Assembly: GCA_028820795.1 (NCBI GenBank)
Contig: JAPPHK010000309.1
Coordinates: forward strand, 1 to 41,343
Source of the DNA: Nitrospinota bacterium
GTDB lineage: Bacteria > UBA8248
DNA length: 41,343 nucleotides
Direction: 5' to 3'
Under the pieces are notes generated by a model. That model was not told the DNA's origin. It ran no database searches and saw only the letters and a program-made list of their open reading frames with translations. This document shows positions 378 to 37,786 of this stretch, piece by piece (the stretch's first letter is position 1; each line of letters starts with the position of its first letter). Position numbers and translations under genes: made by a program.

Positions 378-1331
378 ATGAACGCCACCGCGACACACAA
401 GGAGATGATCATGCACGAGTACGCAGAGCACGAAGCGCAGAACGAATCCTTCACCGCCATGGTATGCGAGCAGGCCGCCCTGTTCGGCGCGACCCCCGGA
501 CCGGACGAGTTCGACAACCGCCCCGTGTGGGACGAGGCCGAGGCCACCGACGCCGTCCTCAAGGCCTTCGGTATCCTGGCCCAAGCCGCGCCCGACGGAA
601 CGCAACTCGCCGATGAGCGGGCGAGCCTCCTGTGGGGCTTCGTCAACACCCTGGACGCGCAGACACAGCGCCTCGACCGCGCCGCCGACAGGCTCATCCC
701 CGGGGTTCGGGAACTCCAGCGCGAGCAGGACGGATCGGAGATCAGGTCCCGCGAACTCGAACTCGCAACCGACAGGGCGCAGAACCTGAATGATCGGCGA
801 GATGCGTTCGAGCAACTCCGTGACGCCGCCGCAGAGGCCTACCGCGCCGAGACCGGCGAGGTATGGAGGCCGAGGCGAGGCTCCCACGTCAGCCAGACCG
901 GCAAGCTCACCTCCGCCGTCATCGAGGCGCGTGACTTCCAAAGGGCGAAAAAGGACCGCGAGAACACCGCGCATCTCCCCCAGGGAACCCTCGTCGCCGT
1001 CGCGGGTGGAAAGGAGTCAACCGACGCGGGCAAAATCATCGCGCACCTCGACAAGGTCAAGGCCAAGTACGCCGACGTCGTCCTCGTCCACGGCGGCGGC
1101 CCGGGTGCCGAGAAGATAGCGGCGGGATGGGCCGAGCGGAACGGCGTCCACCAGATCGTCTGCAAGCCCGACTGGGACGCGCACGGCAGGGCGGCTCCCT
1201 TCCGCCGCAACGACGAGCTGCTCAACCTCCTGCCCAAGGGCGTGATCGCGTTCCCGGGTTCGGGCATCACCGACAACCTCGTCGACAAGGCCCGCTCGCT
1301 CGGCATCCCCGTCCAGAAAATCGCCGCCTGA
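378..1331 (+). CDS. DUF2493 / YspA-like SLOG domain protein of plasmid/ICE backbones
   Basis: C-terminal VAVAGG..VLVHGGGPGAEKIAAGWA..PDW..HGRAAPFRRNDELL..VIAFPGSG; helical N-terminus; RBS aaaggag upstream. Confidence 0.85.
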   Translation: MNATATHKEMIMHEYAEHEAQNESFTAMVCEQAALFGATPGPDEFDNRPVWDEAEATDAVLKAFGILAQAAPDGTQLADERASLLWGFVNTLDAQTQRLDRAADRLIPGVRELQREQDGSEIRSRELELATDRAQNLNDRRDAFEQLRDAAAEAYRAETGEVWRPRRGSHVSQTGKLTSAVIEARDFQRAKKDRENTAHLPQGTLVAVAGGKESTDAGKIIAHLDKVKAKYADVVLVHGGGPGAEKIAAGWAERNGVHQIVCKPDWDAHGRAAPFRRNDELLNLLPKGVIAFPGSGITDNLVDKARSLGIPVQKIAA

Positions 1332-1343
1332 TGCGGGCGCTCC

Positions 1344-1380
1344 AAGGGTCGCGTCGTCGCCCGACGGCGCGGCCCTTCTT
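1344..1380 (+). terminator. Probable intrinsic terminator
   Basis: aagggtcgcgtcgtc-gccc-gacggcgcggccctt hairpin with G-U pairs and a short T-rich tail, just after the 1331 stop. Confidence 0.65.
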
Positions 1381-1649
1381 CACGCCTTCGTCCACTCCTC
1401 CCCGCATCGTTCCACTCGCTTCTTCCCGCTCACTCGCCGCGGCGGCTCCCGCTCGCCATGTTCGCCGGCGCTGGTTTCCCCATCTCCCGTTCCCACGGAT
1501 TCGGCAATCTGACGCCCTTCGGCGCTTCGGATTTCACACCGGACGCATCGCCGATGCAGGTGTCGCGTGGGCTGCGAACGACCGCGTTCCCCTGCGCCCC
1601 GCCTTGATGGATCATCCCCCCGCGCATCCCCGTCGCGTCGGAAAAAGTA

Positions 1650-1804
1650 ATACCAACCTGGTGGCACGCGAACCCTTTGAAATTCCTACACTTAAAAGTG
1701 GCGTATGCTCTTTGTAATACAGCGTAATACGGGGATTTCCTGCATGATACCAAATTGGTAGTACTTCGAAACGCGCTGCGGTATGATGGATACCGATTTG
1801 GTAT
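1650..1804. promoter_or_regulatory. Three imperfect palindromes ATACC-N5-GGT (operator / oriT-like sites)
   Basis: ataccaacctggt 1650-1662, gataccaaattggtag 1746-1761, gataccgatttggtat 1789-1804; tandem gtaatac x2 near 1714-1730. Confidence 0.45.
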
Positions 1805-1935
1805 TGCCGGATTCCGGTATCGATTCGAGACCTTCCCGGTTCGCGACGAGTGTATTCGGTGAAAGAAAACCGGAATTTCCCAATCGCTTTGGACCGGAAT
1901 CGGTGAAAATCTTTACGATAGGAGCGACAAAACGA

Positions 1936-2226
1936 ATGGCTCAGACAGCACAGAAGAACATCCGTTTCACGTTTGAGCAGTGGAAACGCGTCGAGAAAGA
2001 GGCGGAAAAACGCGAGATGTCACCCAACCAACTTGTGGTCGAACTCGTGATGGAAGCCCTGGCTCGTCGGGAATGGCCCCGCACAGAGGCGGAAATCCAC
2101 CTGTTGCGCTCCGCCATGTTCACCGCGCAGGCCATCATTCGCGACATGGAGAAGGCCGGACGCGAGGAAGAGATCGAGCAAATCAGCAGGAATATCTCCG
2201 AAGTCGCGCCGGAATTGCCGGACTAA
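1936..2226 (+). CDS. Small ribbon-helix-helix (CopG/relaxosome accessory-like) DNA-binding protein
   Basis: KNIRFTFEQWKRVEKEAEKREMSPNQLVVELVMEAL fits strand-helix-helix; ATG 1936 follows ggag and is preferred over the ORF-track start 1783. Confidence 0.6.
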   Translation: MAQTAQKNIRFTFEQWKRVEKEAEKREMSPNQLVVELVMEALARREWPRTEAEIHLLRSAMFTAQAIIRDMEKAGREEEIEQISRNISEVAPELPD

Positions 2227-2499
2227 TCGGCAATTAACCCGAGGGATCGGTCAGATTCGGGGTAGCGTTGATGTGCGAGTTAACCTCCCTAATCCGGGGG
2301 AATCAGACAGATAAAGTCAAAGACATTTACAAACGCGTCGGGAACATAGACTGTCTTCGTCGCCTGTGCAACATCATGCTGCCCGACGCTTTCGCTTGAT
2401 ATTTTGCTGTTCAAAATACGGGCTGTTTTTACTCGCTGAACATGCACGGGAGTGAACACGACTGTCGTCAGTCCCAAGTCTAGATTTGCTATGACCGAT

Positions 2500-2893
2500 G
2501 CCAGCCGCGCAGTGGGCGAGACCCTGCGGTGCGATGACGCCAAGCTCCGCTAGATGTCCCCGCAACGCGTTGATTGCCTGGGTGCGCTGGCGAACTAGCA
2601 AATAGTGCGTGCGGAAAAGAATCCCCCTAGGCCTGCTACACTTCGATCTTCACCGCCACGGACTTCATGGTCGGGCTGGAGGCTACCTCGCAGATCGCTT
2701 CCGCATCCGAAGTGTCGTTCTTGTAGTATTTTATGGAGGGCTTCATGTAGACCGGTGGCACGAAATTCACCTCATGACGGAGTATTCCGATCTCGCGGCT
2801 CCAGTAGTATGCGCTCGCGCATGCGTCCATCCCATCGACAATAGCTCCGGCTGCTCTAGTATAACTGACCGCAGGAGTTGCAATCCGCATCAA
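2500..2893 (-). pseudogene. IS110/IS1111-family transposase, degenerate N-terminal fragment
   Basis: MDACASAYYWSREI..VPPVYMKP..KNDTSDAEAICE..PTMKSVAVK, then after a frameshift LVRQRTQAINALRGHLAELGVIAPQG. Confidence 0.85.
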
Positions 2894-2896
2894 GCA

Positions 2897-3736
2897 TCAT
2901 ATAAAAACTCCCGCTAAATGATTTTCGTGTTTGAACCTATCTAGGTATGAAATACAAAAACTGGAGTAAAGAGAATCAACCCGCCTCATCTTTCTCAAAT
3001 TTGCGATTGCATACTCATAAATATCAACATGGAAAGAATCTCCAGAATCTAATTTCTGAAAAGCCTTCTTAGCAACCTTAATCAATTCCTTCATTTTATC
3101 TCGAAGAGCGATGCGGGATTTCACAAAATCAGTGTGGTTCAGATGATAATACTCAATCGATTTATCGGCTCTTGAATATGCTTTCTTGCTCTCATCCTCA
3201 CCAAACCTAGGCATTGCTTCGCCATCTTCCTTGAATACGATGAACCCAACATCTGCTGCTCGGCAGGGGTCAAGTAGTAAAGGTTCTTCTGCCGAACAGT
3301 CACTTTCAGGAAGCCATGCCCTCGTTGATTCATCCCAAAGTGGAAAATGATCTGCTTTCCCTCCAACGACATCCGTATTCAAATCTCGCCGGCGGCGGTT
3401 GGCTACAATACAGCTGTAACGGTAGTTTTCAGGGGAAAATGCAAGCCACCAATACCCAGGGTGCGGATTTTCTCTATCGCACAACTCAGCAATGCGCTTT
3501 TTGGGTCTATAGTGATCGACATCTACATCGGTCCCCTGTTGGGGAGATTCTGTGTACCAACATTTATCATGAAAGATTTCCCGTAACTGAGGTTTTATCT
3601 GGGCCCAAACGTTGCTGTTAGATTCAATGAGATTCGCTCTTTCGGTTTCGTTTTCCGCTTCGAGTAACTGTTGCTTTAGCAGATCGGTCTGTGAGGGCAT
3701 CTTAATTTTCTCTGGATCATAATCAACACACCTCAT
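2897..3736 (-). CDS. HNH endonuclease, PtuB-like partner of the upstream ABC ATPase
   Basis: KCWYTES..VDHYRPK..GYWWLAF..NYRYSC..ANR..GGKADHFPL..PLLLDPC; ATG 3736 is 1 nt after the ATPase stop, with gaggag RBS. Confidence 0.85.
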   Translation of the reverse strand: MRCVDYDPEKIKMPSQTDLLKQQLLEAENETERANLIESNSNVWAQIKPQLREIFHDKCWYTESPQQGTDVDVDHYRPKKRIAELCDRENPHPGYWWLAFSPENYRYSCIVANRRRRDLNTDVVGGKADHFPLWDESTRAWLPESDCSAEEPLLLDPCRAADVGFIVFKEDGEAMPRFGEDESKKAYSRADKSIEYYHLNHTDFVKSRIALRDKMKELIKVAKKAFQKLDSGDSFHVDIYEYAIANLRKMRRVDSLYSSFCISYLDRFKHENHLAGVFI

Positions 3737-3737
3737 C

Positions 3738-5357
3738 TTAAGACTCCTCGAGTTTTTCTTTCTCAAGAAGTCCATGAACGATTTCTTGCGCTTTATCAGT
3801 CCGCCGCTTCAAAACGTCGGGCGTAGGTTCTTCTTCTTGAAATAGCTCGCTTTCGGCTTTGTGTCGGGCTTTCAGAAACTCCTGATAATCGTTATCCCAA
3901 TGGGCTGTGTTAAACCCAAGATATTCAATCGTCTGATCAAGTTCTTTCAGTTTGTTTTGCTCTGCTTGATTGAGTTTTTCTTTTTCGATTAATTTTCTGC
4001 GTTCACGGAGGAGGTTTTCTGTAGGGTTGTCAAGCGTGCCACGTAAGCCAAACATATCGCTGGTAAGAATACCAGCGTACCCCATACCACGTGGACTTTC
4101 GGCAGGAGCTTGAGCGTGTACTTGGCCCCCTCCATCTCTCCAAGTAACCTGCACTTGATTTTTCTCTAATTCAGCGATGGCAAGCGGATGGTGCGTCACC
4201 ATCAACAAATGGCAGACCTCTTTGTTGGGCACAAATTTTCGTAAAAATTGCAAATACTGGATTGCCCATAGTGGGTTAAGATGTGTATCCGGCTCATCCA
4301 ACAAGAAAAGAGAGTCCTTGCCGCCAGTAAACTTCAGTAATCCCAACACGGTCAACAATTGCTGCTCACCTTCGCTAAGTTCACGAAACCTCAGCGGTTC
4401 TTCACATGAACTAACACGGACACGTACACTCACTTCGGAGATGATCTCTGACAACAATGTGCTCTCCAACATCTTGAAGAACACATCTTGGGTCAATCCT
4501 TCGGCAAAGGTACGCAGCGCCTCAACATCTGGCAAAAATAGATGAATAAATTCGTTGGGTTTCCCTCTTCCGGTCAGGGATGTTTCTTCCTGGCGGGTAA
4601 TCTTCACTGGGGCTAACGCGTGAGGATAAATAGTGTCTAAAAAATCCCGGACGACACCTGACGCCCCCCAAAAAAGCTCGTTTTTCTTTCTTGCCCATCC
4701 TGGCTTACGCATTACAAAATGGATGGAATCCAATTCTTCAATACCAAGATGTTCGCGCAAGAATTCTTTTTCTTCGTCATCTTGAGCGCTTAGAAAAAAA
4801 GCCAGAAGAACAAACTGGCTGTGGAATGGCTTCGCATAAAAAAGTGGGCGAATATCAGCTTGTAAGTTGATTTGGCTATTCAGCATCTTTCGGTAAAAAT
4901 TATCCCGATGCCTTCGAAAATAACCTTCCAGTCGGTCACTTGGACCGGAGTAATATGCGAACAGGAAATTCGGAAGAAAGTGGGTTTCGCCCAGACTATT
5001 GCGTTTTACCTTCGAGAGCGGAATAGACTTACCTTGACCGGTGAACTCACCTCCGGGGTAATTCCCAGTCCTAATTCTGTATTGTTGTGCAAGCTTACTC
5101 CTACTTGGGTCCGCATCCACTACAACCCAGCGCACTTTTTCGTCATCGCCCAGCTTGTATTTGATCTCATAGGAAAATGGTGGCGGTTCACCTAAATCAA
5201 GGTTGCGAAAAATCGCAACTAGAGCTTCCAAGATATTTGATTTCCCTGACCCGTTTCGTCCAACGATAACAGTCATCAGGTTGTCTTGATCGAACTCAAT
5301 AGTGATATTTTCCAGATTCTTAAAACGCGAACGAATGCGCAAATAGTCAATTTTCAT
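3738..5357 (-). CDS. ABC/AAA_21-type ATPase (PtuA-like, restriction-system-associated)
   Basis: Walker A GRNGSGKS, signature LSEGEQQ, Walker B/D-loop FLLDEPDTHLNP, H-loop VTHHP. Confidence 0.9.
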   Translation of the reverse strand: MKIDYLRIRSRFKNLENITIEFDQDNLMTVIVGRNGSGKSNILEALVAIFRNLDLGEPPPFSYEIKYKLGDDEKVRWVVVDADPSRSKLAQQYRIRTGNYPGGEFTGQGKSIPLSKVKRNSLGETHFLPNFLFAYYSGPSDRLEGYFRRHRDNFYRKMLNSQINLQADIRPLFYAKPFHSQFVLLAFFLSAQDDEEKEFLREHLGIEELDSIHFVMRKPGWARKKNELFWGASGVVRDFLDTIYPHALAPVKITRQEETSLTGRGKPNEFIHLFLPDVEALRTFAEGLTQDVFFKMLESTLLSEIISEVSVRVRVSSCEEPLRFRELSEGEQQLLTVLGLLKFTGGKDSLFLLDEPDTHLNPLWAIQYLQFLRKFVPNKEVCHLLMVTHHPLAIAELEKNQVQVTWRDGGGQVHAQAPAESPRGMGYAGILTSDMFGLRGTLDNPTENLLRERRKLIEKEKLNQAEQNKLKELDQTIEYLGFNTAHWDNDYQEFLKARHKAESELFQEEEPTPDVLKRRTDKAQEIVHGLLEKEKLEES

Positions 5358-5367
5358 TTGGTTCCTC

Positions 5368-7056
5368 TCATCTCGCTAACGCGAAGATGTCTTCCTCTCC
5401 CCTGCGGTTGCGTGTAATCGTCCCTCTTTTCAATTGTTCCCGAACTTCAAGAAAAAACAATTCCAATTGGTCCGTCGAAACGTCATTGGGATAGCCCGCT
5501 TGCGCCAACAAGTCTTGGGTGCTCAATGGAATGTTTGCCTGCTTTAAGGTATCCAAAACTGAGATCGTTCTGATTCGCCGTTTTTTCTGAGCCATCCTTT
5601 TACCCTCCATGCTCTTGCTTGTCTTTTTTAGATTTTCCCGTTCTTTTCTCCTCAACCGGATGTGCTCCAACAACATATTAGCGGGCTCGTCCGTCAAATC
5701 TTGCGACACTAACTCCCCCCTGAAAGCCTTCGCAAGGATGGAATTCTTAAGAATCGTATTCTTCCTGATCGCATCGTCTACCAAATGACGGACATTTTCG
5801 ATCACCGAAAAAAGATTTTTTATCCGATGAACAATTATTTTCTGCTCTTCTTTGGAACAAAGCGGCACTTCGAATGCGGCAAGTTTCTTGGCATTAATGT
5901 TAGATTGGTTGACGCCGTCACTTTTAACACGCCAACAATAGTCACGCCCCATTGGGCTGTTCAGACAGAATGCAAGAAATTCCGGATCCAACTCATTCAA
6001 GGTACGGATGCGGATTAGATAGCCAGCATAAATAGCAACGCGACCACCAAGATAAACGGCCGTTTTTCCAACCAACTCAGGGCTATTCGTTCGATTGAAC
6101 AGAACGTCTCCAAACGTAAGAGAATACTTCCCAATTTCAGTGGGGTCTGATGTGTACACCAGATTTGACCAATCAAGTTCTCCGTTTTGAATGTTCCCCA
6201 TCCGTAGCACAGGGACTTTACCTGATGAGCTTGATTTCTTAGATGAGCCATATTTGAAGGACGACGCAAGATTCTCCAACTTAATGTAAGCCCAGCTATT
6301 TGGAAGTAGGTCTGATGCTGTTTCTTCCGGGGCATTGGAAATAGCAGCAATTTTTATTGATTCTGAAGAGGACACAACGTTTTCGAGTTGTCGCATTTTG
6401 AGTTGGCGAACTACCTTCTCAATAGGCACCAAATTGTCCCTTGATTCACGCCAGTCGGCAGTTAGATCTCCACAAAAGGCGGCGAGGAGGACAGATTGAC
6501 GGTATTGATCGAGTAGCGCCGAAATGGCAACTAATGCTTCCTTTGTCCGCTGGCTTTGATCCAACAAAGCGTCAGTCTTTTTAACGATGCGATGTTGTTC
6601 GTTAATAGGAGGAAGAAGGATCTCAGTTTGTTCGAATTTTCCTTTAGTGATGTGACGAAGCCCCGCCCCACCATGCGCCTTGCCTATAAGTTCCTGAAGC
6701 TTCTGATTAATTGCATACCGTAGAAAACTCTTGTTAATCCAGTTTTCATCTACCTCGATTTTGAAAATATGTTGGTTAAGGACTGCTGGACCACCGTTCC
6801 AAATATGTGCGCCAAAAGACGTGCCAGGTGTTCCGGACCACGCAAAGAGTAAAGCACCATTATCTATTAGAAATTTTTCGGCAACTTCACCGTTAAAATA
6901 ATTATACGGGGCCCGTGGATTGTTAAGATTCTGAATCCTAACAATTGGCATCCCCTCTTCCACCCAGTCAGACGGTTTGAAAGCTTTACCGTTGATCAAA
7001 TGGCATACCAATCCTATCTCTGCGGACACCCAATTTTTTGGAAGCATCTCACTCAT
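5368..7056 (-). CDS. hsdS: Type I restriction-modification specificity subunit with C-terminal extension
   Basis: Two TRDs with conserved spacers (LPPINEQHRIV; VPLCSKEEQKIIV; QSVLLAAFCGDLTADWR; SILAKAFRGELV); ATGA overlap with hsdM. Confidence 0.93.
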   Translation of the reverse strand: MSEMLPKNWVSAEIGLVCHLINGKAFKPSDWVEEGMPIVRIQNLNNPRAPYNYFNGEVAEKFLIDNGALLFAWSGTPGTSFGAHIWNGGPAVLNQHIFKIEVDENWINKSFLRYAINQKLQELIGKAHGGAGLRHITKGKFEQTEILLPPINEQHRIVKKTDALLDQSQRTKEALVAISALLDQYRQSVLLAAFCGDLTADWRESRDNLVPIEKVVRQLKMRQLENVVSSSESIKIAAISNAPEETASDLLPNSWAYIKLENLASSFKYGSSKKSSSSGKVPVLRMGNIQNGELDWSNLVYTSDPTEIGKYSLTFGDVLFNRTNSPELVGKTAVYLGGRVAIYAGYLIRIRTLNELDPEFLAFCLNSPMGRDYCWRVKSDGVNQSNINAKKLAAFEVPLCSKEEQKIIVHRIKNLFSVIENVRHLVDDAIRKNTILKNSILAKAFRGELVSQDLTDEPANMLLEHIRLRRKERENLKKTSKSMEGKRMAQKKRRIRTISVLDTLKQANIPLSTQDLLAQAGYPNDVSTDQLELFFLEVREQLKRGTITRNRRGEEDIFALAR

Positions 7057-8480
7057 TCTGCTGTCTCGTTTGTATCTGAATACTTGGGTGTCAGTAAATC
7101 GCTGAGTGCATCCATTTCTTCCAATGCAGTGCGGAGATTTTCCATGACTTCCCGGGCGATGCTTTCAGGATCGGGAGGGTTTTCGGTGCCGCTGTTGCCA
7201 TCGTCCTTGAGCCAAGAGATGTCCAAGTTGTCTTTTCGCTTGGCGATGTATTTGCGGCTAAAGCAACGGAATCGCCCTTCCTCGCCCTCATCTTTCCGTT
7301 CGGCTGTGTTATGGGGGTCGTCACCGAATGCTTTTTCAAAAGGCTCAAGATGTTTCTCGCTCAGTGGATTGCGTTTGCCGAAAGAAGGCATATTTGTCCG
7401 CATGTCATAGACCCAGACGAATTTCGTGTTCTCCTTGTCCTGTTTTCCGCGGCTAAAGAACAGCACATTGGTCTTGATGCCCTGACTGTAAAAGATACCC
7501 GTAGGAAGTCGCAAGATGGTGTGGAGATTGCATTTTTCCATTAAGTCTTGGCGGATTTTCTTGCCTACGCCTTCTTCGAACAACGTATTATCCGGTAAAA
7601 CTACCGCGGCTCTCCCTCCTGGCTTGAGGCCAAGGTAAATATGCTGCAAGAACGCAAGTTGTTTATTGGTTGTCAAAAACGGGATGTCTTTGCGCCCGTC
7701 ACGAACGCTTCCGGCTTTCGCACCAAATGGTGGATTTGCCAAGATGAGGTCGGCAAGAACTAGGTCACGCGCATCTTCGGTTAGCGTGTCCCCCAAAATG
7801 ATGTCTGCATCCATTTGGTGTAAAAAAATATTCATCAAGCAAATACGGTGGGTGCTCTTTTCAATCTCCATACCTTGATATGATGGTGGGTTTGAGGCGT
7901 AAGCTTTATAATTGTTTGTGGTACGGAGGAAATGTTCTGCAGAAATCAAAAATCCTCCACTTCCTGCTGCCGGATCCTGTATTTCTTCGCCCAACTGAGG
8001 CTTTGTCAGCTTCACGATGCAATCAACTAAAGTCCGTGGCGTGAAATATTGCCCAGCACCTGAACGCGCATCCTGGGAATTCTTTGCGAGTAATCCCTCG
8101 TAAACTTCCCCGATTCCATCCTCTGTTACTGAATGCCAGTCGATCTTCGCAATTCCATTGATTACGGCTCGGAGGTTTTCTGAATGTGAAAAAACCGTTG
8201 TTGGAAAGGCGTATATCGCTCGTACTGCCTCAGATTTAGCGTATCCGCCTAGGCGTGTCAGCATCTCTTGGTAAAATGCCAAAAGCTTATCACCGTCGTA
8301 ATCTAAAAGATCTCGCCACCGGCAGCCTTTCAGTAACAGTTTTTCGGTTTCGTTTTCTTCAGCAATTTTAAGAAAAAGGAGGTATGTGAGTTCAGAAATA
8401 TACTCGTGATAGCTGATGCCATCACCGCGCAGTATATGGCAAAGATTCCAAACATTTTGGATGATATTTTCGTTGCTCAT
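7053..8480 (-). CDS. hsdM: Type I restriction-modification N6-adenine methyltransferase
   Basis: GAGQYFTPR, motif I DPAAGSGGFL, motif IV ANPPFG, LHTILRLPTGIFY; EcoKI-like N-terminus WNLCHILRGDG. Confidence 0.95.
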   Translation of the reverse strand: MSNENIIQNVWNLCHILRGDGISYHEYISELTYLLFLKIAEENETEKLLLKGCRWRDLLDYDGDKLLAFYQEMLTRLGGYAKSEAVRAIYAFPTTVFSHSENLRAVINGIAKIDWHSVTEDGIGEVYEGLLAKNSQDARSGAGQYFTPRTLVDCIVKLTKPQLGEEIQDPAAGSGGFLISAEHFLRTTNNYKAYASNPPSYQGMEIEKSTHRICLMNIFLHQMDADIILGDTLTEDARDLVLADLILANPPFGAKAGSVRDGRKDIPFLTTNKQLAFLQHIYLGLKPGGRAAVVLPDNTLFEEGVGKKIRQDLMEKCNLHTILRLPTGIFYSQGIKTNVLFFSRGKQDKENTKFVWVYDMRTNMPSFGKRNPLSEKHLEPFEKAFGDDPHNTAERKDEGEEGRFRCFSRKYIAKRKDNLDISWLKDDGNSGTENPPDPESIAREVMENLRTALEEMDALSDLLTPKYSDTNETAE

Positions 8481-8482
8481 CC

Positions 8483-9280
8483 CTAGCAGTCCATTGAAAA
8501 AGGGTGGTTCAGCCGGTTTCCTGATTTTCCGTGATGACGCATTCGATGGCGTCCGGAGCGCTCACCGAGGGGAGCCAATTCAGGAATAAGGCAGTGTTGG
8601 GAAGTCCAACCTCTGAGCACAAGTACAAGAAAGAAGAACCAGACCCTTGCCACGGCCTCTACTGGGGTTCCGGCTCCTTCTAGAAAGCGTATCAACAGTT
8701 TGAGATTATGCTTGGTGACATGAATCGAGAAGCGCTTGTGAAAGTTCTCACGACTGTGCAGCAAAGTTCGTCGCATTACGCCCAGATACAGGATGTGGGG
8801 GAAGGATTGCTCGACGATCTCGGCTTGCTTGCGTATGACCCCTTTACCGATGCTCGATCGCAGATGGCCGCGATTGTTGTAGACAGCCCTGAGCGCCTCC
8901 TCATCCCCGTGCCAATGCGAGAAAGTCGCACGCCACTGCTCGGCGAGCCGGGATGTCAAGTGGCTACCATCCAAGTTCTGTAGGACAGCGCGCGAACGGT
9001 AGCATTTTTGGGCCACACGCTCCGCCGGTACTTCCGACGAAGGAGGTCCACCGGCATCCAGTAGATGGCTTTCAGCACTCACTTGCGTGCCCTTGATAGC
9101 CTTGGTATCGCCCTTGTCAGCGGGATACAACTCGGGTGCCACCACCGCGCCGATGTCGAGAGCGACGGTGTGTTCCGGCTTGCAAGAAAGACACTGAGCC
9201 CTTCCTTTATCTTAGCAACGTCGACCTGCTGGTCGATCTCGGGCATCCACTCCTTGTTGGACAGCTTTCTGCTTTTGCAC
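8483..9280 (-). mobile_element. Degenerate IS1182/IS5-like DDE insertion sequence (3' part with terminal repeat)
   Basis: Frameshifted transposase RKLSNKEW..AKIKEG / ELYPADKGDT..VAQKCYRSRAVL..AEIVEQSFPHIL..MRRTLLHSRENFHKRFSIHV..HNL; end ctttttcaatggactgctag (minus strand, 8502-8483) resembles IS termini. Confidence 0.7.
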
Positions 9281-15674: not shown

Positions 15675-16598
15675 CTATAAGTTAGATAAGAGAGTGTCCG
15701 TGAGCGCTCTTGGACTCATTGGATCGAAGCAAACTGGGATGTGTTTCTGACGATAAACGCTAATTAGCAAAGACGAGGTAAAAATCCAAAAGTGATCGTC
15801 GTCCGGCAAGGAAGTGTTGGAAAGAATCGCACTCAACCGGTCGGCCAAGGAAAAATATTCTTGATTGCCCCCGTGGCCCCAAACCGGAGTTATGTCGTGA
15901 AGGATGAGGACCATAAGGGCAAAGCCCATGGAACGCTCTCTCAGCACTTCTTGGTAACTGTGTCCTTTTTCTATGGCGTAAGTCGCGAGTTTAGCCGTCA
16001 TGAATTCTCGGGCCCAGACATCGCATTTCATTTCCTCCTCCTTACGGTCATCTGGACGCTGGCCATCGAGATCCAGCATGACGTGGTGAAATTCATGAAA
16101 CAGAGCGAAACCAAGCGCGAGGCATGTCAGATCATAGGCTGTCTTGTATTGTAGATCTTCCATAGCATCGCGATCCGCACTAGGGCGTGGTAGGTCTGGC
16201 GGCCATGAGATGTCGTGAGAATTCGTCGCACTAATCAGCGACTCGACTGACTTACGTCGCTCTTTGTAATCCCGTTCGACATCTGCAAGTTTCTCATCAT
16301 CTCGGATGAGAGCGGTTATGGGCTGATTCTGACAATACGAACATACCACATGTGGAGAATAACACTCGATGGCGTGCCACCCGCTGAATCCGATCAGCCA
16401 AAACACGTCTATTGTTTTCATGCTAAAAGCTATTCGATCCTTCGTTACGTTCAGTGCAATTCTGCAGGTGTCGGGGGCAATAATGACTTGTGGGTTATAT
16501 TTCCTCCATAGGCGTTCTATGTCATGGCGACGCTCGGGAGTTACACCGAACATGAGATTCAAGACTGCCACCTTCGGGTCAATTGACGGCAAATTCAA
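15675..16598 (-). CDS. Phage exclusion Lit-family zinc metallopeptidase (peptidase U49-like)
   Basis: ALFHEFHHV (HExxH) then EEEMKCDVWA; WPPDLPRP motif; about 300 aa like Lit. Confidence 0.8.
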   Translation of the reverse strand: MNLPSIDPKVAVLNLMFGVTPERRHDIERLWRKYNPQVIIAPDTCRIALNVTKDRIAFSMKTIDVFWLIGFSGWHAIECYSPHVVCSYCQNQPITALIRDDEKLADVERDYKERRKSVESLISATNSHDISWPPDLPRPSADRDAMEDLQYKTAYDLTCLALGFALFHEFHHVMLDLDGQRPDDRKEEEMKCDVWAREFMTAKLATYAIEKGHSYQEVLRERSMGFALMVLILHDITPVWGHGGNQEYFSLADRLSAILSNTSLPDDDHFWIFTSSLLISVYRQKHIPVCFDPMSPRALTDTLLSNL

Positions 16599-17194: not shown

Positions 17195-18055
17195 TCAAAT
17201 CGCGAAACGTTCGATCATATCTGGGGTCCTTGCCCAGTCCTCGCCCGGGATGAGGTCGATCAGTTCCCGCAAGACCCGCCTGAACGCTTCCTTCGTGGAG
17301 TCTTCGTCCAGGGTCTCGGCGTGCTCGACCGAAACCAGGGGCCGCATGTCCGTAAGAAAAGCTGGATTCGCGAGTTTCGCGAACATTCTTTGCTGCGCTT
17401 CGGCGCGGGAAATACGCAGCCCCGATGCTTCAAGATAGAACACGAGACCTTCCACGACCCGCGCCCTGTCCAATCCTTTGAGCGTGCGCAGCCCGTGATA
17501 GAGATCGAACAGGTCGCGCCCCTTGTTTCTCTGAAGAAGCGCCCGGAGTTTCGTCGCGAAGATTTCCTCAATCGAGAACGTCGCTATGTCCGCCGCCCCG
17601 CTGAACCATGGGTTTTCCACCGCGAACGGAATGGAGACCGGCGGATCGAACGCCTTGATTTCCCGTGTATTGATTTCGATTTTCAGGCGGATCGGGGCGC
17701 CGACGGACGGGTCTTCCGCATCGACCTTGAAACGGAGTTTGGGAGCCGTAGCGCTCGGGGCGAAACCAGCCCGTCCCAGCCATGGTTCGAGAGTTTCCCG
17801 GATGGCATCGAGAACCGGGCCGATCGGTCCGGTCTCGGTCCTGACAAGGTCGATGTCTTCCGAATAGCGAAGGGGTTGAGGAAAATGGAGCTTGTTAAGC
17901 GCCGTTCCGCCGCGAAAGCGCAGCTGTCCGGCCAGTCCGGGATTGGAAAACAGCTCTACGAGCGCGCGGCTGATGACAAGGTCCTGTTCGACCTGGCGCA
18001 GATCCGCCCAGGGGACGACATTCCCCCATGCGATGATGTTCATCCGGGGGATCAT
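17195..18055 (-). CDS. abiEii: AbiEii-family nucleotidyltransferase toxin (type IV TA)
   Basis: QVEQDL, FRGGTALNKLH..RYSEDIDL, KIEIN, KLRALLQRNKGRDLFDL. Confidence 0.93.
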   Translation of the reverse strand: MIPRMNIIAWGNVVPWADLRQVEQDLVISRALVELFSNPGLAGQLRFRGGTALNKLHFPQPLRYSEDIDLVRTETGPIGPVLDAIRETLEPWLGRAGFAPSATAPKLRFKVDAEDPSVGAPIRLKIEINTREIKAFDPPVSIPFAVENPWFSGAADIATFSIEEIFATKLRALLQRNKGRDLFDLYHGLRTLKGLDRARVVEGLVFYLEASGLRISRAEAQQRMFAKLANPAFLTDMRPLVSVEHAETLDEDSTKEAFRRVLRELIDLIPGEDWARTPDMIERFAI

Positions 18056-18879
18056 TCGTCGACCTCAGGCAAACGACGGACGATGACGCGCCAGTGTTCG
18101 TCACGTTCCAGCGGGGGTGGCATGAATTCGGGGTCGCGGGTCTCCTTGCGGTCGAGTTCGACCCACGGAAATGCGCCGCGGCCGGACAGCGCGTCGAACA
18201 TCGGTCCGGTTCGGTCCCCGTGCCCGAGGCGGTCCAGCAGATAACCGAGACGCTGCACGATTGAGCGCTCCGCCGCGGATGAAAGCCGCGCCAGTTCCTG
18301 CGAACCGAGTTTCGGGCCGAGATCGGCAAGGACGGTGACGAGGTTGTCGATGCCCCCTGCGGCATGGGAATAGCGCACAAGGTCCAGTGCCGTGAGTTCG
18401 ACGGACGACACTCTCATCGTGCCCGTATCGGTCTTGCGGTTTTCCACGCCGTCCGATACGGTTTTCATATCTTTTCGGTAATGAAAAGCGATCCGGGTTC
18501 TGCCGGCGTGGATTCCGGGCAGCCGTTTGTCCGTGACAACGGGAAACTCCATAACGGCATGATGGGTAGCGCCATGCAGTTCGGCCGCCTTGAGGAGAGC
18601 GACATAATACGGCCGCCCTTCGTGCCGCATCAGGTCATCGATATACCAGCCCGGAGGCGGAGCGCCCCAGGATGCGTACCGGGGAGGAACCACCACATAG
18701 AACCCATTCCGCAGCCTGACGAGATGCCTGCGGCGCTGGAGCCGTTCGGCGGCGTCGAGAAACGCGCCTCGTCCGATTCCCAGCGCCTGCTCCGCCTCGT
18801 CTGCCGAAAAGACTACGCGGCCCTCTGACAGCAGGCCGGAAGTATAGGATGACAATGTTTTTCGTTGGGCATGTATCAT
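18052..18879 (-). CDS. abiEi: AbiEi-family antitoxin / transcriptional regulator
   Basis: N-terminal wHTH, GFYVVVPP, YYVALLKAAELHGA, RVSSVELTALDL, VQRLGYLLD; ATGA overlap with abiEii. Confidence 0.92.
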   Translation of the reverse strand: MIHAQRKTLSSYTSGLLSEGRVVFSADEAEQALGIGRGAFLDAAERLQRRRHLVRLRNGFYVVVPPRYASWGAPPPGWYIDDLMRHEGRPYYVALLKAAELHGATHHAVMEFPVVTDKRLPGIHAGRTRIAFHYRKDMKTVSDGVENRKTDTGTMRVSSVELTALDLVRYSHAAGGIDNLVTVLADLGPKLGSQELARLSSAAERSIVQRLGYLLDRLGHGDRTGPMFDALSGRGAFPWVELDRKETRDPEFMPPPLERDEHWRVIVRRLPEVDE

Positions 18880-18906: not shown

Positions 18907-19456
18907 TATTCAACATAATAATTTGACGACAGAAAAATCATTCCTGAAAATCCGCTGGATACACGGATTAATCGAAACGATACTTGAAGGACGACTCAAG
19001 TATAAAACCAGCCCTTTTCCTTGAGACACGGTCCCTCTGACATAAAGTGAGATCCATTGAGGCGCACACGCCCTATTCCTCATAATCATTCTCTTCGAAA
19101 CAGAATTTGCGCAGAACGGCATCACAACCTTCATGGGAGCCAAAGCTCTTACGGGATAGAGCAGGCTCAGGATGTTGCAGGTTGTATCAAAAGCTTCGGC
19201 GAGCCCGCGGATCACAAATGCGATCCTGGACTATAGTTGGGCGCCGCAGTACGACCCAATTTCCTGCGAGATCAATGTCCTGATAGTCCGATCAACATCG
19301 AGAGGCCGGCGCTGGCAAACATTGCGGGTACTGGAAAGACACAATCCGATCTCCTACAATGCGGATAGCATTCAGCTACTCCGCGCCCGAGCCTCCGAGG
19401 AACTCCGAGATTCTCCCTTCACCGATTTATGCGATCGGCCGCAGGAAAAAGGTATC

Positions 19457-21022
19457 ATGGTTCAAAGGATTGACCGACATAGCGAGCATCATTTCGCTTC
19501 TCTCTGCGTAGCCGCAGGAGCTGCTTGCAACATGTCGGAAGATGATCGCCATGGGTGGGACCATATCGTCGAGATACCGCCCAATCCCCATCCCAATCGC
19601 CCACCCGACAAACAGCCTCGACTCATCACGGTTCTTGTCCAGGTAAAGTCGACGAAAACGAATAAACTGACCACAAGAATCAAGCTTTCGAATGCCCTGA
19701 AGGCGGTACAGTCCGATTTGCCATGCTTTATTGTTATGTTCTCCTATAGTGGCACGGAGACCAGGGTGTATGCGAAACACGTTTGGCTCGAACTTACCGA
19801 AAGAATTCTGAAACGGGCAAGAGAATCGGAAAAACTGGGATTGGATTCTCTCCACAAAAAACGGTTTTCGGTCTCGTTCAGAGCAGGGGACCAGATCGAA
19901 GAAAACAAAATAGTAAAATGGATACAGAATACTGTTGCTGCAATCGGCGAAGACTATGCTTCGAAAAAGATTCAAATGTGTACTACCTGCGGATACGATA
20001 AAGGAAGGTACATCGGGAAATTCACATTGGGGCCTTTGAAAAACGTTCAACAAATTGTCGATCATGAAATCGGGTTACTGGAATCTTTGCCAGTGACAGA
20101 CTTTGTGGTGTACGAGAAAAGGTTCGGGATACAATCTACCCATCCAGAAATTTCATCTCCGGAAGGCCACGTTCAGTTGCAAAATGCAGGCGTAAAAAAC
20201 GCTATTCTGGTTATTTCGAACACGTCCGGAGACAAGGTTGAGTTTTCTGCCAATGTCCGTTTACCTTTGCTGATCCCCGTTGACCACGAAGCCTTTAGGG
20301 TGCGAGTGCAAGCCGGTGTCTTGGACTTCACATTTTCTCCGGGCCGAAATCAGGCGCAAAAGTTTCGGTTGAGCTACGATGAACGTGCCGAGTATAGCAT
20401 ATACGATCAGAGCCAATTCTTCGATTTCATTCAATGGTGTAAGGAAGGGGACGTCGATTTACGCCTCATTTCGGAAAGAGGCGTGCTTTGGGGAGCCAAT
20501 GTCCAAATCAGTCATGCGGTGAAGGATTGGCAAATTTCTGATCTGCGATCATACCTCAAGCTTCTCCTCAACATAGGAGGAGACACTCAGTCACGCAAGA
20601 TTCCCACGACAGGAAGGGCGATTCAGGATTCCATGAAGTCGGGGTACTTGATTGCGACGCTAGCGGATGCGCACGACTTGCGAATAGGAACTCACACTTC
20701 TGTATCGGAACCGGAAGTTAGCACGTTTTCTGGCTTCGGCGTCATCAGGTTGGGAAACTGGTATTTTACTTCGATTCTTGAATTTCAAGTGATCAATGTC
20801 TCTCAAAGCCCTGAATTTACCGCTTGGGATTTGCAGTTCAGCAAATTTCTCATGAACAGTGCCAGCTTGGTTGAATTCGAACATGCAAAGGCCACTGTGA
20901 AGGCGGCATTCGATCAGCATGTAGAATCATCCGATTCAAGAATGATGTACTTCGAGGACGGGGATTTGAAGCATTTCGCGAATTTGGGGAATTCCGAGAC
21001 AACAATGAGAACCAACAAGTAG
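19457..21022 (+). CDS. DUF4365/Cap4-like PD-(D/E)xK nuclease domain fused to an unknown beta-rich C-terminal region
   Basis: EDDRHGWDHIVE..VLVQVKST; ATG 19457 with aggaaaaagg RBS preferred over ORF-track start 19172. Confidence 0.7.
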   Translation: MVQRIDRHSEHHFASLCVAAGAACNMSEDDRHGWDHIVEIPPNPHPNRPPDKQPRLITVLVQVKSTKTNKLTTRIKLSNALKAVQSDLPCFIVMFSYSGTETRVYAKHVWLELTERILKRARESEKLGLDSLHKKRFSVSFRAGDQIEENKIVKWIQNTVAAIGEDYASKKIQMCTTCGYDKGRYIGKFTLGPLKNVQQIVDHEIGLLESLPVTDFVVYEKRFGIQSTHPEISSPEGHVQLQNAGVKNAILVISNTSGDKVEFSANVRLPLLIPVDHEAFRVRVQAGVLDFTFSPGRNQAQKFRLSYDERAEYSIYDQSQFFDFIQWCKEGDVDLRLISERGVLWGANVQISHAVKDWQISDLRSYLKLLLNIGGDTQSRKIPTTGRAIQDSMKSGYLIATLADAHDLRIGTHTSVSEPEVSTFSGFGVIRLGNWYFTSILEFQVINVSQSPEFTAWDLQFSKFLMNSASLVEFEHAKATVKAAFDQHVESSDSRMMYFEDGDLKHFANLGNSETTMRTNK

Positions 21023-21384: not shown

Positions 21385-22653
21385 CTATCCGCCTGACCCC
21401 GTTCCTTCTGGCCTATCGCTACGGAGATGTCCTCGCAGTATGAACGCATCTGGAGGTGTCCCATCGAGCCGAATGACATTCCAGCCGGACCAGGTAACTT
21501 CGTCGAAGTTCATGTCCGTCAACCGTGTGGAGACTATGGTTTGGAATCTGCACTCAGCTGAACCTAGAACTTCCGCATAGCGCTTCAGCCAATCAGTGTC
21601 AATCCGCCAGGAATCAGCATCGAGAATCAAAAGAGTCGGTCTGGTAATGGATAGTTTGGTGGCCGTTATGATTCCGAGCTCCAACATGAGCTTCTCGCAC
21701 TCTGAACTGGCCAATAGCCGTAGCAGCCTGGATTCAATCTGATTGGCGGCTTGCACTTCAACATGCATGTAAACGCCTTCGTCGGTCTCCTCGAAGCGTG
21801 CTCCTTTGAAAAAATCGCTTTTATTGGCTAACTCGTCGCAAATCGCTTGAAGTTCGTACGGGTGCAGTTTCATTGAGTCGGACACAATATCGCGATCATT
21901 GCGCATTTCCTGAAACCGGTGCTCTATGCTTACGGGGAAAATAACCTTTATGGTATCGGTCGACAAAAACGTTTGCTCTCCATCCAACTTGTATCGAGGG
22001 TATTTTGGACATAGAAAATCAACCTCAATCCGGTGCGGGTCTGGGTTATAGTAATCAACTCTGTAAGACAACCGCTTCAGAGAGTCTCGAGTTAATGTTT
22101 CCCATCTTTCCAGATAAGCGGGATTGGAGATTCCAGCAATCCATTCACATAGTGCTGTCTTTCCAACACTGTTCTCACCGACAATTAGATTCAGTTTGGC
22201 GAATTCTATTTCTAAGTCATCAGAAAAAAGGGGCGATGAATGGAGCGTGAATTTATTTATCCATCCGAAAGGTGTGTGAATTCCCGCTTGCTCATGCGCT
22301 ATTCGTGTTTCGTGCAATGCCTTGTAACTATGCAAAGTTTCAGGTGGATATTCCTTGCCTCTGTTCTTGTCAATCAAGCTTGCACAATGGCCACACAACC
22401 AGATAGCGTTTTGCGGGGATTTTAATTCGTCGTAGCTAAGTCCTCCGGTACCACGTGGTCCACCTCCTGAAATGGCAGCGCCATAGATATGGGCAGCGAT
22501 TCCTGTGATTAATGGTTTTTGCGGATCCTCAGCTGGCCCTACCGTTGTTCGATTACAACCTGGGAAACTGCATCTATAACCGGCCCTTTGTGCAGTGAGT
22601 TCTCTTGTCTTCAGAGAAAAATCCGCTCTTTTGTGTTGCTTGTCATCAGTCAT
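21385..22653 (-). CDS. HNH-type nuclease fused to a degenerate ABC-ATPase domain
   Basis: RAGYRCSFPGC..AAHIYGA..GGPRG..NAIWLCGHCASLID; then LNLIVGENSVGKT, LASSE, LLILDAD, QTIVST. Confidence 0.75.
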   Translation of the reverse strand: MTDDKQHKRADFSLKTRELTAQRAGYRCSFPGCNRTTVGPAEDPQKPLITGIAAHIYGAAISGGGPRGTGGLSYDELKSPQNAIWLCGHCASLIDKNRGKEYPPETLHSYKALHETRIAHEQAGIHTPFGWINKFTLHSSPLFSDDLEIEFAKLNLIVGENSVGKTALCEWIAGISNPAYLERWETLTRDSLKRLSYRVDYYNPDPHRIEVDFLCPKYPRYKLDGEQTFLSTDTIKVIFPVSIEHRFQEMRNDRDIVSDSMKLHPYELQAICDELANKSDFFKGARFEETDEGVYMHVEVQAANQIESRLLRLLASSECEKLMLELGIITATKLSITRPTLLILDADSWRIDTDWLKRYAEVLGSAECRFQTIVSTRLTDMNFDEVTWSGWNVIRLDGTPPDAFILRGHLRSDRPEGTGSGG

Positions 22654-23860: not shown

Positions 23861-24904
23861 GGCAAGGTTCCAGGTTGCTCTTGTTGAGAGTAGCGTCCGG
23901 CTGAAGACGCCCTTCCTCGATTCAATAACGTTTTCTGAAGCTCGTCTTGCGACGATCACCAAGAGGGGAGCCAGGAGTGAATACCGTAGCCAGCCTGTTC
24001 AATACGATATCGAACTCATCCGCCTGTCGAGCAATAACGCCACGACCACCAAATTACATTTTCGTCGTCCGCCTGCATTCTACCCTGAGCAGTATGATCA
24101 AGACTTCCTATTATAACAAGCGAAACCAACCTATCCGATTATTTCAAAAAAACTTCCCTACTGGCTTCTTGGACATGATCTCGTGCAAGTGTAGTCCCTA
24201 CAGAGACACCCCGCCAATAACGCTGGCCGCTGGTGCACCCTGCACTCCACCGAAGCATTCATCTTGATTTCTTCGGCATCCAGCCCTAGGCATGGACGGA
24301 TGGGTGCGCCTTGGGCCGAGGCGGACGTTTTCGGGTGACTCTTGGGGAGAAAATCGTCCTTACTGAGTTCATTGCCTATTCCAACTTGAGCGAATTGCGT
24401 TCAGCGGACGGCGCTTCCTGGTGTACCGCGATTATCGCCAGCTATGTGTTGTTCAGTTTTTCGAATTTCGTCATCATAAGCGTGCAGATAGGCAGCATCG
24501 GTGGACTCCCCTAGATCGAATGAACGATCTGGGGAAATTGCAATTCTCGTTGGTATCCTTGCCTCCTGGCTGCCTGCCACCCTGGTGGAGATGATTATTT
24601 GAGAAGGATGATCCAATGAATATAGAACTTCAACCTGAAGATGAACGAGACTTGAGAACCTTGGTAGAGCTTAAATTACAATCTCGGAATTACGTGGAAA
24701 TTAAAGAGTTTTATAAGTGGCCGACCCGGAAAGATTCCGAATCGGTGGAATACCAACCCCCCAGCCCGGAACATTCCTTGACAACGAATAAAATTCGCAT
24801 CAAGTAAATCGGAGTAGGAATGGCTTCGGCTAAACTTTTGTTAGCTATCGAAGCTCATAATGCTCGCGTTTGACGCACGGACGAAGCGAAAGGAAATAGC
24901 CATT

Positions 24905-28418: not shown

Positions 28419-28767
28419 AGGCGCATCCTTTCCATATTCACTTGCGCGCATCACTCGGCGGTATCTACGGCATCGCCCGACAGCACACTCCGCGTCGCGC
28501 ATATCGCTGACCGCCCTAATGGAGCCACCCTTGCCCTGGAAATTGGGCCGCTAGTGGGTGCTGAGCCGGAATCACGGACGGGGCAATCACCTTGACCCTC
28601 GAGTATGTCATCGGCTTCGCCGGAATACGCAATGGCCGCCGAGAACGCTGCTGCGAACGACATTTTCAAACCCCCCGGACAAAGTCTTGGAACTGCGCCC
28701 GCGCACGCCAGGTACCACTACAAGCCCGTCTCCCGCCATGTGCCAGTTGCAAGCGTTGACGAATCTG

Positions 28768-29715
28768 TCACGTCGTCTTTTTGCTGGCTTGCGAGCGCGT
28801 TTTCATTTGTCCGATAAAAGCCAATGTGGTGGCATCGTGCCCTCTTTGCATTCTGTCAATCCACCAAATTGGGTAGTTATTCGACGGATTGTTCAGCCGT
28901 CGGACAATGATGGCCACAATCTCATCCGAGGTGCGATCAGTGACAAGGATGGACGACACGGATTCTTGAGGGACGGTAATGACCGCAATACCACTTCCGG
29001 GCTGCTGTGCTTTCGACAATTCGGTAATCAAACGCCACTCTTGTTCATATTCCCAAGCGACTCCTTTGCTAGACATGAATGCATATGCGTTCTCTTGGTT
29101 GACAACTCGCGGACCCATAACTAGGGGAAGATTATCCTCATATCTGACCTGTCTGATGATCGAAGTGCCAATCAAGTGCCTGACCCAATAATCAATGTTG
29201 TAGCCAATGACAACGCCTTTGCAGTTGTCAGCATAATGTGACCACATCTTCACATCATCTCTTCTAGTCGAAAACGATGTGACCCCGTATCGCTTTGACA
29301 ACTGGTCGCAAGTTAACTCGGCCCCATAGACACGAGGATATTTCTGACGAAATCTTTCCACGTCGTCGACAGAAACTGGCGATTCTGGGAATAGTTCGGT
29401 TAGGGTTGAAGCATATTCTCGATTGATATTCTCCCGATTCTTTTCGTCATCAACAAACGAGGGTTTGTAATTGATCTCATTAATGTCGTTTAACTCGTTG
29501 GGCGGCGTGACGCGGAACGAGCACGGCTTCTCGTCAGGAAGAACATTGTCCAATCGATCTGCAGGAATGTATTTGTAGAGCACCTGTGGGGGTTGTGAAA
29601 ATTGGTCAAAGAACGTTTGGTCTGGATCCAATAGGCGTGCACGCCAAAATTCTTTTTTTATTTTTGTGTGTCCGGATGCGTCAATGGCGTCCAACAGATT
29701 TCGCGTTGTAAACAT
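28768..29715 (-). CDS. DUF2971 domain protein
   Basis: LYKY, FRVTPPNELND, VTSFS..MWSHYADNCKGVVIGY, VRY, KGVAWEYEQEWR. Confidence 0.88.
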   Translation of the reverse strand: MFTTRNLLDAIDASGHTKIKKEFWRARLLDPDQTFFDQFSQPPQVLYKYIPADRLDNVLPDEKPCSFRVTPPNELNDINEINYKPSFVDDEKNRENINREYASTLTELFPESPVSVDDVERFRQKYPRVYGAELTCDQLSKRYGVTSFSTRRDDVKMWSHYADNCKGVVIGYNIDYWVRHLIGTSIIRQVRYEDNLPLVMGPRVVNQENAYAFMSSKGVAWEYEQEWRLITELSKAQQPGSGIAVITVPQESVSSILVTDRTSDEIVAIIVRRLNNPSNNYPIWWIDRMQRGHDATTLAFIGQMKTRSQASKKTT

Positions 29716-37756: not shown

Positions 37757-37786
37757 CCACTGTCTGTAAACGGGCGAAAGATCCGT
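37757..37786 (+). repeat. 30-bp direct repeat, copy 1
   Basis: ccactgtctgtaaacgggcgaaagatccgt; 27/30 identical to 39890-39919. Confidence 0.8.

Follow-up and report, generated by a model that had tools for sequence, protein, structure and literature searches.

A type I methyltransferase and specificity subunit with a PtuAB-like ATPase-nuclease pair: a probable four-gene phage-defence cassette in a Nitrospinota genome

PrrC is a single protein that carries a HEPN-type anticodon nuclease. It is also established that type I restriction-modification loci often harbour defence genes, including ABC ATPase modules (preprint 10.1101/2024.01.29.577857), that PtuAB, the ATPase-nuclease pair of Septu, can be co-opted by a sensor, and that the MADS system exists; MADS is described as telling self from non-self by N6-methyladenine (m6A) (PMC13662399; preprint 10.1101/2023.03.30.534895). 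The retron Ec78/Eco7 is treated by PADLOC as a Septu subtype (PMC8565338). Here we describe a locus that brings these themes together in a 41.3-kb stretch of DNA, called the window below, which is a complete contig (C83) of a metagenome-assembled Nitrospinota genome that is 79% complete. At positions 2897-8480, on the minus strand, the open reading frame (ORF) list gives the genes hsdM and hsdS of a type I methyltransferase, followed by a ptuA-like ATPase gene and a ptuB-like HNH nuclease gene. The four genes probably act as one phage-defence unit, because a domain at the tail of HsdS is predicted to grip the ATPase and because HsdR, the usual cutting subunit, is absent. We argue for one physically coupled machine rather than two neighbouring systems.

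All four genes are intact in the window (Table 1). The initial annotation of this DNA had described them as tightly coupled and unaccompanied by hsdR, and the ORF list, the gene junctions and searches with Pfam and PADLOC bear this out. Read from the sequence, hsdM and hsdS overlap in an ATGA at 7053-7056; the TGA stop codon of hsdS and the ATG of ptuA are separated by 10 nt (gaggaaccaa) that contain a GAGG site; and a single nucleotide lies between ptuA and ptuB (TAA-g-ATG). The start of ptuB was placed at the ATG at 3736, as the listed ORF (2897-3775) opens inside the ATPase gene and the PADLOC PtuB profile begins at residue 14. The window thus holds two of the three subunits of a type I system, an m6A methyltransferase and a specificity subunit with two target-recognition domains (TRDs) and two conserved regions (CRs), and lacks the HsdR subunit. 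HsdM has the catalytic NPPF motif at residues 249-252 and a DPxxGxGGF motif, and scored 90 bits with the NCBIfam hsdM model, whose cut-off is 242.75. A conservation profile of 74 relatives divides HsdS into TRD1 (about residues 1-145), CR1 (145-205), TRD2 (250-400), CR2 (400-475), a basic linker and a C-terminal extension; its alignment with EcoKI HsdS (2y7c; E 1.3e-34) stops at residue 491, about where the extension begins.

The initial annotation had proposed a PADLOC search, which revealed that the ATPase-nuclease pair is already catalogued as Septu PtuA/PtuB. The match of the ATPase to the PtuA profile PDLC00293 (E 2.2e-203, 675 bits) runs from residue 1 to 535 and covers profile positions 1-525 of 527. 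Its Walker A (GRNGSGKS, 33-40), signature (LSEGEQ, 327-332) and Walker B (LLDEPD, about 352-357) motif residues are invariant among 26 relatives, and Pfam found no nuclease domain in it. The solved PtuA (8ee4) is only distantly similar, in one short stretch (E 1.5e-5), and the NCBIfam PtuA model gave 58.5 bits with a cut-off of 500. In PtuB, residues C59, Y61, E63, H75, N104 and N113 are invariant among 54 aligned relatives, at least 90% of which also have D74; neither Pfam nor a sequence search of the Protein Data Bank (PDB) returned a match. We also observed that PtuB is modular: in three pairs of loci (L032 and L041, L027 and L045, L096 and L089) the PtuA proteins are 65-76% identical and their PtuB proteins just 28-30%, and two PtuB subtypes have therefore apparently been swapped.

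A single PtuA protein as query retrieved no related loci, whereas an alignment-based scan of one genome per species yielded at least 525 confirmed matches, carried by many phyla. The best 80 were kept with 10-kb flanks, and are thus the loci most similar to the window and not a random sample. Close PtuA homologues (63-90% identity) came mostly from Proteobacteria and metagenomes. Immediately before PtuA, 75 of these 80 loci have HsdS, and 77 have PtuB immediately after it; the remainder are truncated at contig ends (four of the five for HsdS), apart from one degenerate locus, L095, in which HsdS and PtuB are both missing. HsdM occurs on either side, giving the order M-S-A-B or S-A-B-M, where A and B are PtuA and PtuB. 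The gap from S to A has a median of 2 nt and falls within -20 to +30 nt in 65 of 68 cases; for A to B the median is -4 nt, with 48 of 49 in the same range. Because related loci repeat both the gene order and the close spacing, the arrangement is not explained by chance, and these data support a functional coupling of the ATPase-HNH pair to M and S.

A different account of the same layout would have two systems travel independently, with no functional or physical coupling: a type I methyltransferase (M+S) that is orphan or solitary, and a Septu of the ordinary two-gene kind. Unrelated defence genes are described as commonly embedded in type I loci (preprint 10.1101/2024.01.29.577857; PMC12255303), stand-alone Septu works as two genes (PMC13096335), and in many family-IB control loci S and M are separated by other cargo 1-3 kb long. 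However, cassette-type PtuA was accompanied by hsdS wherever the contig was long enough to tell, the junction between S and A is translationally tight, and a dedicated domain of HsdS, described next, is confined to PtuAB-linked proteins and is predicted to bind PtuA. We consider independent travel improbable. Seven loci with such cargo between hsdS and hsdM are L119, L123, L124, L126, L129, L132 and L138.

The C-terminal extension of HsdS, about 75 residues long and called S-CTD here, was present in 73 of 74 PtuAB-linked HsdS proteins; the exception is a split gene. For comparison, we examined 40 regions beside EcoEI_R_C matches in a sample of 300 gammaproteobacterial genomes. These contained 24 HsdS with a complete C-terminal conserved region, and the single one that has the extension is also the sole one followed by cassette-type PtuAB. 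Two further ordinary R-M-S loci likewise lacked the domain, which was found in 0 of 25 family-IB HsdS not linked to cassette-type PtuAB. As a separate observation, ABC ATPases weakly related to PtuA (25-146 bits with the PtuA profile) directly follow hsdS in the family-IB loci L115, L118, L135 and L144 of the sampled Gammaproteobacteria, and the HsdS proteins there have no winged-helix extension.

An AlphaFold2 model of S-CTD has a predicted local distance difference test score (pLDDT) of 86 and shows a winged helix with the order H-H-H-E-E. No Pfam family matched S-CTD, and Foldseek returned nothing at E <= 0.001, its top matches being generic winged-helix folds; at rank 5 stood the C-terminal domain of ScpA bound to an SMC head, which we note as an analogy and not as evidence. 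The initial annotation had suggested modelling S with the ATPase. We modelled PtuA and PtuB with HsdS residues 476-562 as three chains in 3 runs, and each run gave an interface score (ipSAE) of 0.70, compared with 0.01 for the best control. Of 80 solved complexes, 58 reached this mark, as did 2 of 110 mismatched pairs. The runs had at least 69% of contacts in common, with a partner pLDDT of at least 75, and all confident contacts joined S residues 513-558 to PtuA residues 211-310. On the PtuA side these are 211, 213, 215, 228, 244, 248-256, 272-276, 308 and 310; H213, V215, P250, R255 and H272 of the PtuA insert are invariant among the 26 relatives. PDB sequence searches found no comparable solved complex. 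S-CTD is therefore predicted by the model to dock onto the beta-rich insert of PtuA. Together with the conserved adjacency, these results uphold the earlier proposal that the ATPase-HNH pair is coupled to M and S.

We then turned to HsdR. No hsdR turned up in the window when 28 ORFs were scanned with Pfam, and searches of the whole genome with ResIII and TIGR00348 matched nothing on this contig. No EcoEI_R_C domain was found in the window's genome at its 79% completeness. That genome does encode HsdR of other families on other contigs, of which C296 and C12 also carry an HsdM and C112 and C321 are cut at contig ends. In the relatives, large ORFs upstream of the cassette were identified by Pfam as family-IB HsdR with ResIII, EcoEI_R_C and HSDR_N domains. 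A profile built from nine family-IB HsdR was used to re-score the 80 loci. By this measure 46 loci have hsdR, 26 do not despite 5-8 kb of upstream sequence, and 8 are undecidable; 46 of the 72 decidable loci therefore carry a family-IB hsdR, positioned directly upstream. The initial annotation had listed hsdR in every homologous locus among the conditions that would refute it. That does not hold: 26 decidable loci have no hsdR, and one whole HsdM clade is without it. The HsdR-less architecture itself stands for the window's HsdM clade and not for the family: the absence of HsdR is a sub-lineage trait, and the family-wide rule is type IB restriction-modification plus PtuAB. We rejected the idea of a degenerate HsdR whose nuclease is replaced by PtuB, given that the D...ExK nuclease motif is intact in 43 of 43 full-length copies.

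R-less loci adjoin housekeeping or plasmid genes (gcvT, glmS, gyrB, traG). A search of 10 whole R-less genomes found 8 without any EcoEI_R_C, and among the 5 in which HSDR_N was also sought, 2 had none. Just upstream of hsdM, two otherwise R-less loci retain remnants of hsdR, an N-terminal piece of 100 aa in L026 (6636-6935) and a C-terminal piece of 78 aa in L054 (5011-5244), which are in frame and are footprints of hsdR deletion.

These footprints, and at least 16 changes of R status on the PtuA tree, could suggest that hsdR was lost recently and that the cassette in the window is what remains of a decaying type I restriction-modification system, itself on the way to loss. The trees, built with a quick method and supported by the Shimodaira-Hasegawa-like approximate likelihood-ratio test only, argue otherwise. 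On the PtuA tree the rows nearest the window are all R-less, and on the HsdM tree a clade with 99% support unites the window with 14 R-less loci and one that is undecidable, 16 rows in all and hsdR in none. The members of this clade are spread over both major PtuA clades. Four further cassettes with HsdM of this type, on three Escherichia coli chromosomes and a Pseudoalteromonas plasmid, also have no hsdR nearby. Divergence within the lineage is deep, at about 1.5 changes per site along paths of the tree and with HsdM identities down to about 51-64%, and yet NPPF and the S-adenosylmethionine (SAM)-binding motif I are present in all 16 members. Nor is the specificity subunit static: the HsdM proteins of L032 and L048 are 84% identical, while their TRD1 and TRD2 are 13% and 17% identical, and for L064 and L066 the corresponding values are 85%, 16% and 16%. 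R-less and R-plus HsdM do not differ by a deleted domain, and the flanks of the 16 loci of the clade hold no fifth conserved gene. Because catalytic motifs are kept and TRDs are exchanged between close cassettes, the R-less form is old, mobile and still selected for methylation and for new specificities. With all four genes intact in the window, and the same R-less cassette in E. coli islands and on plasmids, recent decay is highly improbable. The adaptor and the old R-less clade are the reasons why we disfavour both independent neighbours and a remnant.

The reading we prefer, tentatively and at somewhat less than even confidence, is an HsdR-independent, methylation-guided system in which PtuAB is the effector wired to a family IB-like M2S methyltransferase, forming a self-contained and horizontally acquired cassette. 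HsdM and HsdS would mark host DNA with m6A at the sequence set by the target-recognition domains of HsdS. The C-terminal winged helix of HsdS, on its basic linker, would dock onto the beta-rich insert of PtuA, which in turn would carry the PtuB HNH nuclease. When M2S engaged unmethylated target sites on incoming DNA, the tethered PtuAB would fire in place of HsdR, cutting DNA or, as with other PtuAB pairs, a tRNA. In this scheme both the gating of PtuAB by methylation status and the target of PtuB are inferred. For the window's lineage, the restriction-like reading is favoured because methylation chemistry and specificity turnover persist without HsdR, and because MADS demonstrates that an M+S pair and an ABC ATPase-nuclease pair can work in this way.

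Several observations weigh against this reading. In the 46 relatives with hsdR, PtuAB adds to a complete restriction enzyme and is not a substitute for it; the helicase motifs (GxGKT, DExH) are intact alongside the nuclease motif in all full-length copies. A guard or back-up role would suit this commonest state better. PtuAB of stand-alone Septu and of retrons is described as acting by abortive infection on tRNA-Tyr rather than by sequence-guided restriction (PMC13096335, PMC11555353). The control set for S-CTD consists of 24 gammaproteobacterial HsdS and a single betaproteobacterial one (Comamonas, L110). As for the complex, its score expresses the confidence of the model itself and was obtained with custom alignments and with three chains that differ from the calibration set, which makes the calibration of the 0.70 mark rough. 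Finally, the predicted tether between S-CTD and PtuA suits sequestration as well as recruitment.

Sequestration is what a PrrC-like guard would involve. M2S, with HsdR where present, would hold the S-tethered PtuAB inactive until a phage anti-restriction protein (a DNA mimic of the Ocr/ArdA type, or Stp) bound or disabled M2S and freed PtuAB for abortive tRNA or DNA cutting; in R-less cassettes M2S would be bait. A complete family-IB R-M-S system plus PtuAB, with HsdR intact, is the layout of PrrC-EcoprrI. PrrC and PARIS have been described as guardians of restriction-modification (PMC12707154), and anti-restriction proteins as frequent triggers of ABC ATPase defences (preprint 10.1101/2024.01.29.577857). 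Retron Ec78 is reported to sequester PtuAB and release it upon infection (PMC12819146), and tRNA-Tyr cleavage is attributed to Septu and retron PtuAB. The nuclease here, however, is an HNH protein and not a HEPN anticodon nuclease. Moreover, a decoy for DNA mimics could do without methylation and without new specificities, yet in the R-less clade the catalytic motifs are kept and TRDs continue to be exchanged. A guard is the main rival, somewhat less probable than the restriction-like reading. The initial annotation had left the choice between restriction arm and guard undecided; the methylase motifs and the specificity turnover of the R-less lineage lean towards the restriction arm.

A broader proposal, which we put forward only as a conjecture with somewhat less confidence than the methylation-guided system, is that S-CTD is a plug-in adaptor that defines an HsdR-independent, type I-like class. 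The place of HsdR would be taken by an SMC/Rad50-like ABC ATPase and its HNH nuclease partner, the ATPase would dock HsdS as the kleisin winged helix docks the SMC head, and the same M2S core could run with HsdR, with PtuAB or with both. If the finding as a whole holds, an HsdS adaptor of about 75 residues would provide a concrete and testable physical link from a restriction-modification recognition core to an ABC-ATPase/nuclease effector. This would account for the way in which Septu-type effectors come by a sensor, a parallel to their capture by retrons, and would mean that the killing arm of a type I methyltransferase core can be exchanged. Current annotation would record such loci as two things, an incomplete type I system and a Septu apart from it. 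A full-text literature search found no description of the hsdM-hsdS-ptuA-ptuB unit, the R-less HsdM lineage or the HsdS adaptor; that search did not reach supplementary tables or the ABC ATPase classification, where they may be catalogued.

The cassette is widespread, judging by the matches to PtuA, and its prevalence is low: in the sample of 300 gammaproteobacterial genomes there were 2 matches, one of them the search centre. In E. coli, 11 of 5426 genomes matched when an Enterobacter cassette was used as the query in a distant search mode, and a megablast search of E. coli genomes with the same query found none. R-less cassettes recur at integration hot spots, namely glmS in Acinetobacter (L048), gyrB (L065 and L103), dinD/yicG in E. 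coli (L154 and L155) and mutS in E. coli, with an integrase (L156). Tyrosine recombinases or Tn7-type genes lie near R-less cassettes, and from these and the hot-spot sites it follows that the four genes appear to move as a unit. The cassette is mobile, on plasmids and integrase islands. Natural R-less copies are carried by E. coli NCTC11121, NCTC9966 and KFu019, and because such ordinary collection strains have the cassette, the two competing mechanisms can be told apart by standard assays with phages and plasmids.

The cassette lies in a region of the window, from about 2.3 to 35 kb, with a G+C content of 43-56%, compared with 61-76% in the flanks, and its PtuA was found in 0 of 50 other genomes of the window's phylum. 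Because the G+C content differs from that of the flanks and the ATPase is missing from these genomes, the region is an acquired island. The cassette is part of a dense defence island, with further genes at 10725-33308 (Table 1). Next to hsdM, on its upstream side, is an ORF of 220 codons that matched nothing in Pfam, PADLOC or NCBIfam and has no homologue in any of the 80 loci; it may be an addition specific to this lineage, or no gene at all. Promoter-like and terminator-like sites were not above shuffled expectation. Elsewhere in the same genome, contig C87 has a pair of genes for an 852-aa ResIII protein and a 725-aa N6_Mtase protein at both ends (790-5221 and 35234-39665), in opposite orientation and with identical scores, which points to a large inverted repeat or an assembly artefact.

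Table 1. Positions of the cassette genes, of the two domains proposed to interact, and of neighbouring features in the window
Feature	Position	Strand	Remarks
hsdM, type I m6A DNA methyltransferase subunit, 475 aa	7053-8480	minus	Pfam N6_Mtase, E 2.3e-74; PADLOC MTase_I PDLC03026, E 1.3e-192
hsdS, specificity subunit, 562 aa	5368-7056	minus	two Pfam Methylase_S stretches, E 1.6e-32; PADLOC Specificity_I, E 1.2e-90
HsdS winged-helix domain (S-CTD), residues 486-562	5371-5601	minus	proposed PtuA-docking adaptor
ptuA-like ABC ATPase, 539 aa	3738-5357	minus	PADLOC PtuA; Pfam AAA_21, AAA_15, SMC_N
PtuA insert subdomain, about residues 205-315	4413-4745	minus	beta-rich, precedes signature motif; predicted S-CTD docking site
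ptuB-like HNH nuclease, 279 aa	2897-3736	minus	PADLOC PtuB PDLC00330, E 1.1e-86
ORF of 220 aa, GTG start	8483-9145	minus	ends 2 nt before hsdM
STAND-like NTPase, 1554 aa	10725-15389		defence island; weak AAA_16
Lit-like peptidase U49	15675-16598		defence island
AbiEii/AbiEi	17195-18879		defence island
Protein with N-terminal endonuclease or HNH effector-like region	21385-22653		defence island; weak AAA_15
PDC-S31/DUF2971	28768-29715		defence island
McrB/McrC	30061-33308		defence island
Large ORFs without family	19172-21022, 24860-26626, 26961-28502		defence island

How, then, does the locus compare with described systems? The initial annotation had mentioned similar architectures catalogued computationally, among them restriction-associated AAA ATPases. 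The entry meant is probably NCBIfam TIGR04435, 'restriction system-associated AAA family ATPase', which is the best NCBIfam match of the ATPase and confirms that such ATPases have been noted; at 133.9 bits with a cut-off of 300, and over the C-terminal half only, the ATPase is no member by the NCBI threshold. As in Septu, the PADLOC PtuA and PtuB profiles match over their full length, the ABC motifs and HNH residues are conserved, and the two genes are adjacent and, in relatives, overlapping. However, the cassette clade is linked to hsdS and hsdM in all but the cut or degenerate loci and so probably does not act as a stand-alone two-gene system, the window PtuA is remote from any solved or tested PtuA, and the partner HsdS bears a dedicated domain predicted to dock it. 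With retron Ec78/Eco7 (type I-A; 'Septu type II' in PADLOC) the cassette shares the co-option of PtuAB by a sensor module, PtuA there having gained sensor-binding elements (PMC12819146). The cassette has a type I M2S as sensor where the retron has a reverse transcriptase with msDNA, its adaptor is part of HsdS, and there are no retron genes.

PrrC-EcoprrI likewise places an ABC-ATPase-type nuclease module inside or beside a type I locus, and PrrC is reported to be found almost only there (preprint 10.1101/2024.01.29.577857). The cassette differs in having two proteins with a separate HNH nuclease, in belonging to family IB and not IC, and in the absence of HsdR from the window's lineage; embedding in a complete R-M-S system, as for a PrrC-type guard, holds for the hsdR-carrying majority of decidable relatives and not for the window. 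Among type I systems proper, HsdM and HsdS of the cassette are closest to those of family IB (EcoAI/EcoEI), in R-M-S loci whose HsdR carries EcoEI_R_C and whose HsdM scores 660-716 bits with the HsdM profile. The window departs from these in lacking hsdR, and its genome in lacking EcoEI_R_C, and in the winged helix added to the C terminus of HsdS.

A parallel in gene logic is MADS (mad1-8, Pseudomonas aeruginosa), which combines a type I-like M (MAD2) and S (MAD5) with the ABC ATPase-nuclease pair MAD3/MAD4 and has no HsdR (PMC13662399; preprint 10.1101/2023.03.30.534895). Window proteins match mad2, mad3 and mad5 weakly in PADLOC and NCBIfam, with NCBIfam scores of 87.6, 44.6 and 22.8 bits and cut-offs of 720, 400 and 420, respectively; in PADLOC the ATPase scores 72 bits with mad3 and 675 bits with PtuA. 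PADLOC found no match to mad6, mad7 or mad8 among 18 window ORFs, and MAD6-8 are mandatory in the published detection model (preprint 10.1101/2023.03.30.534895). With these missing, no MAD4 Toprim and scores far below the cut-offs, we rejected membership of MADS. The nuclease of the cassette is an HNH protein (PtuB) where MAD4 is a Toprim protein, and four genes stand where MADS has eight. If the finding as a whole holds, the cassette would be a compact four-gene relative of MADS.

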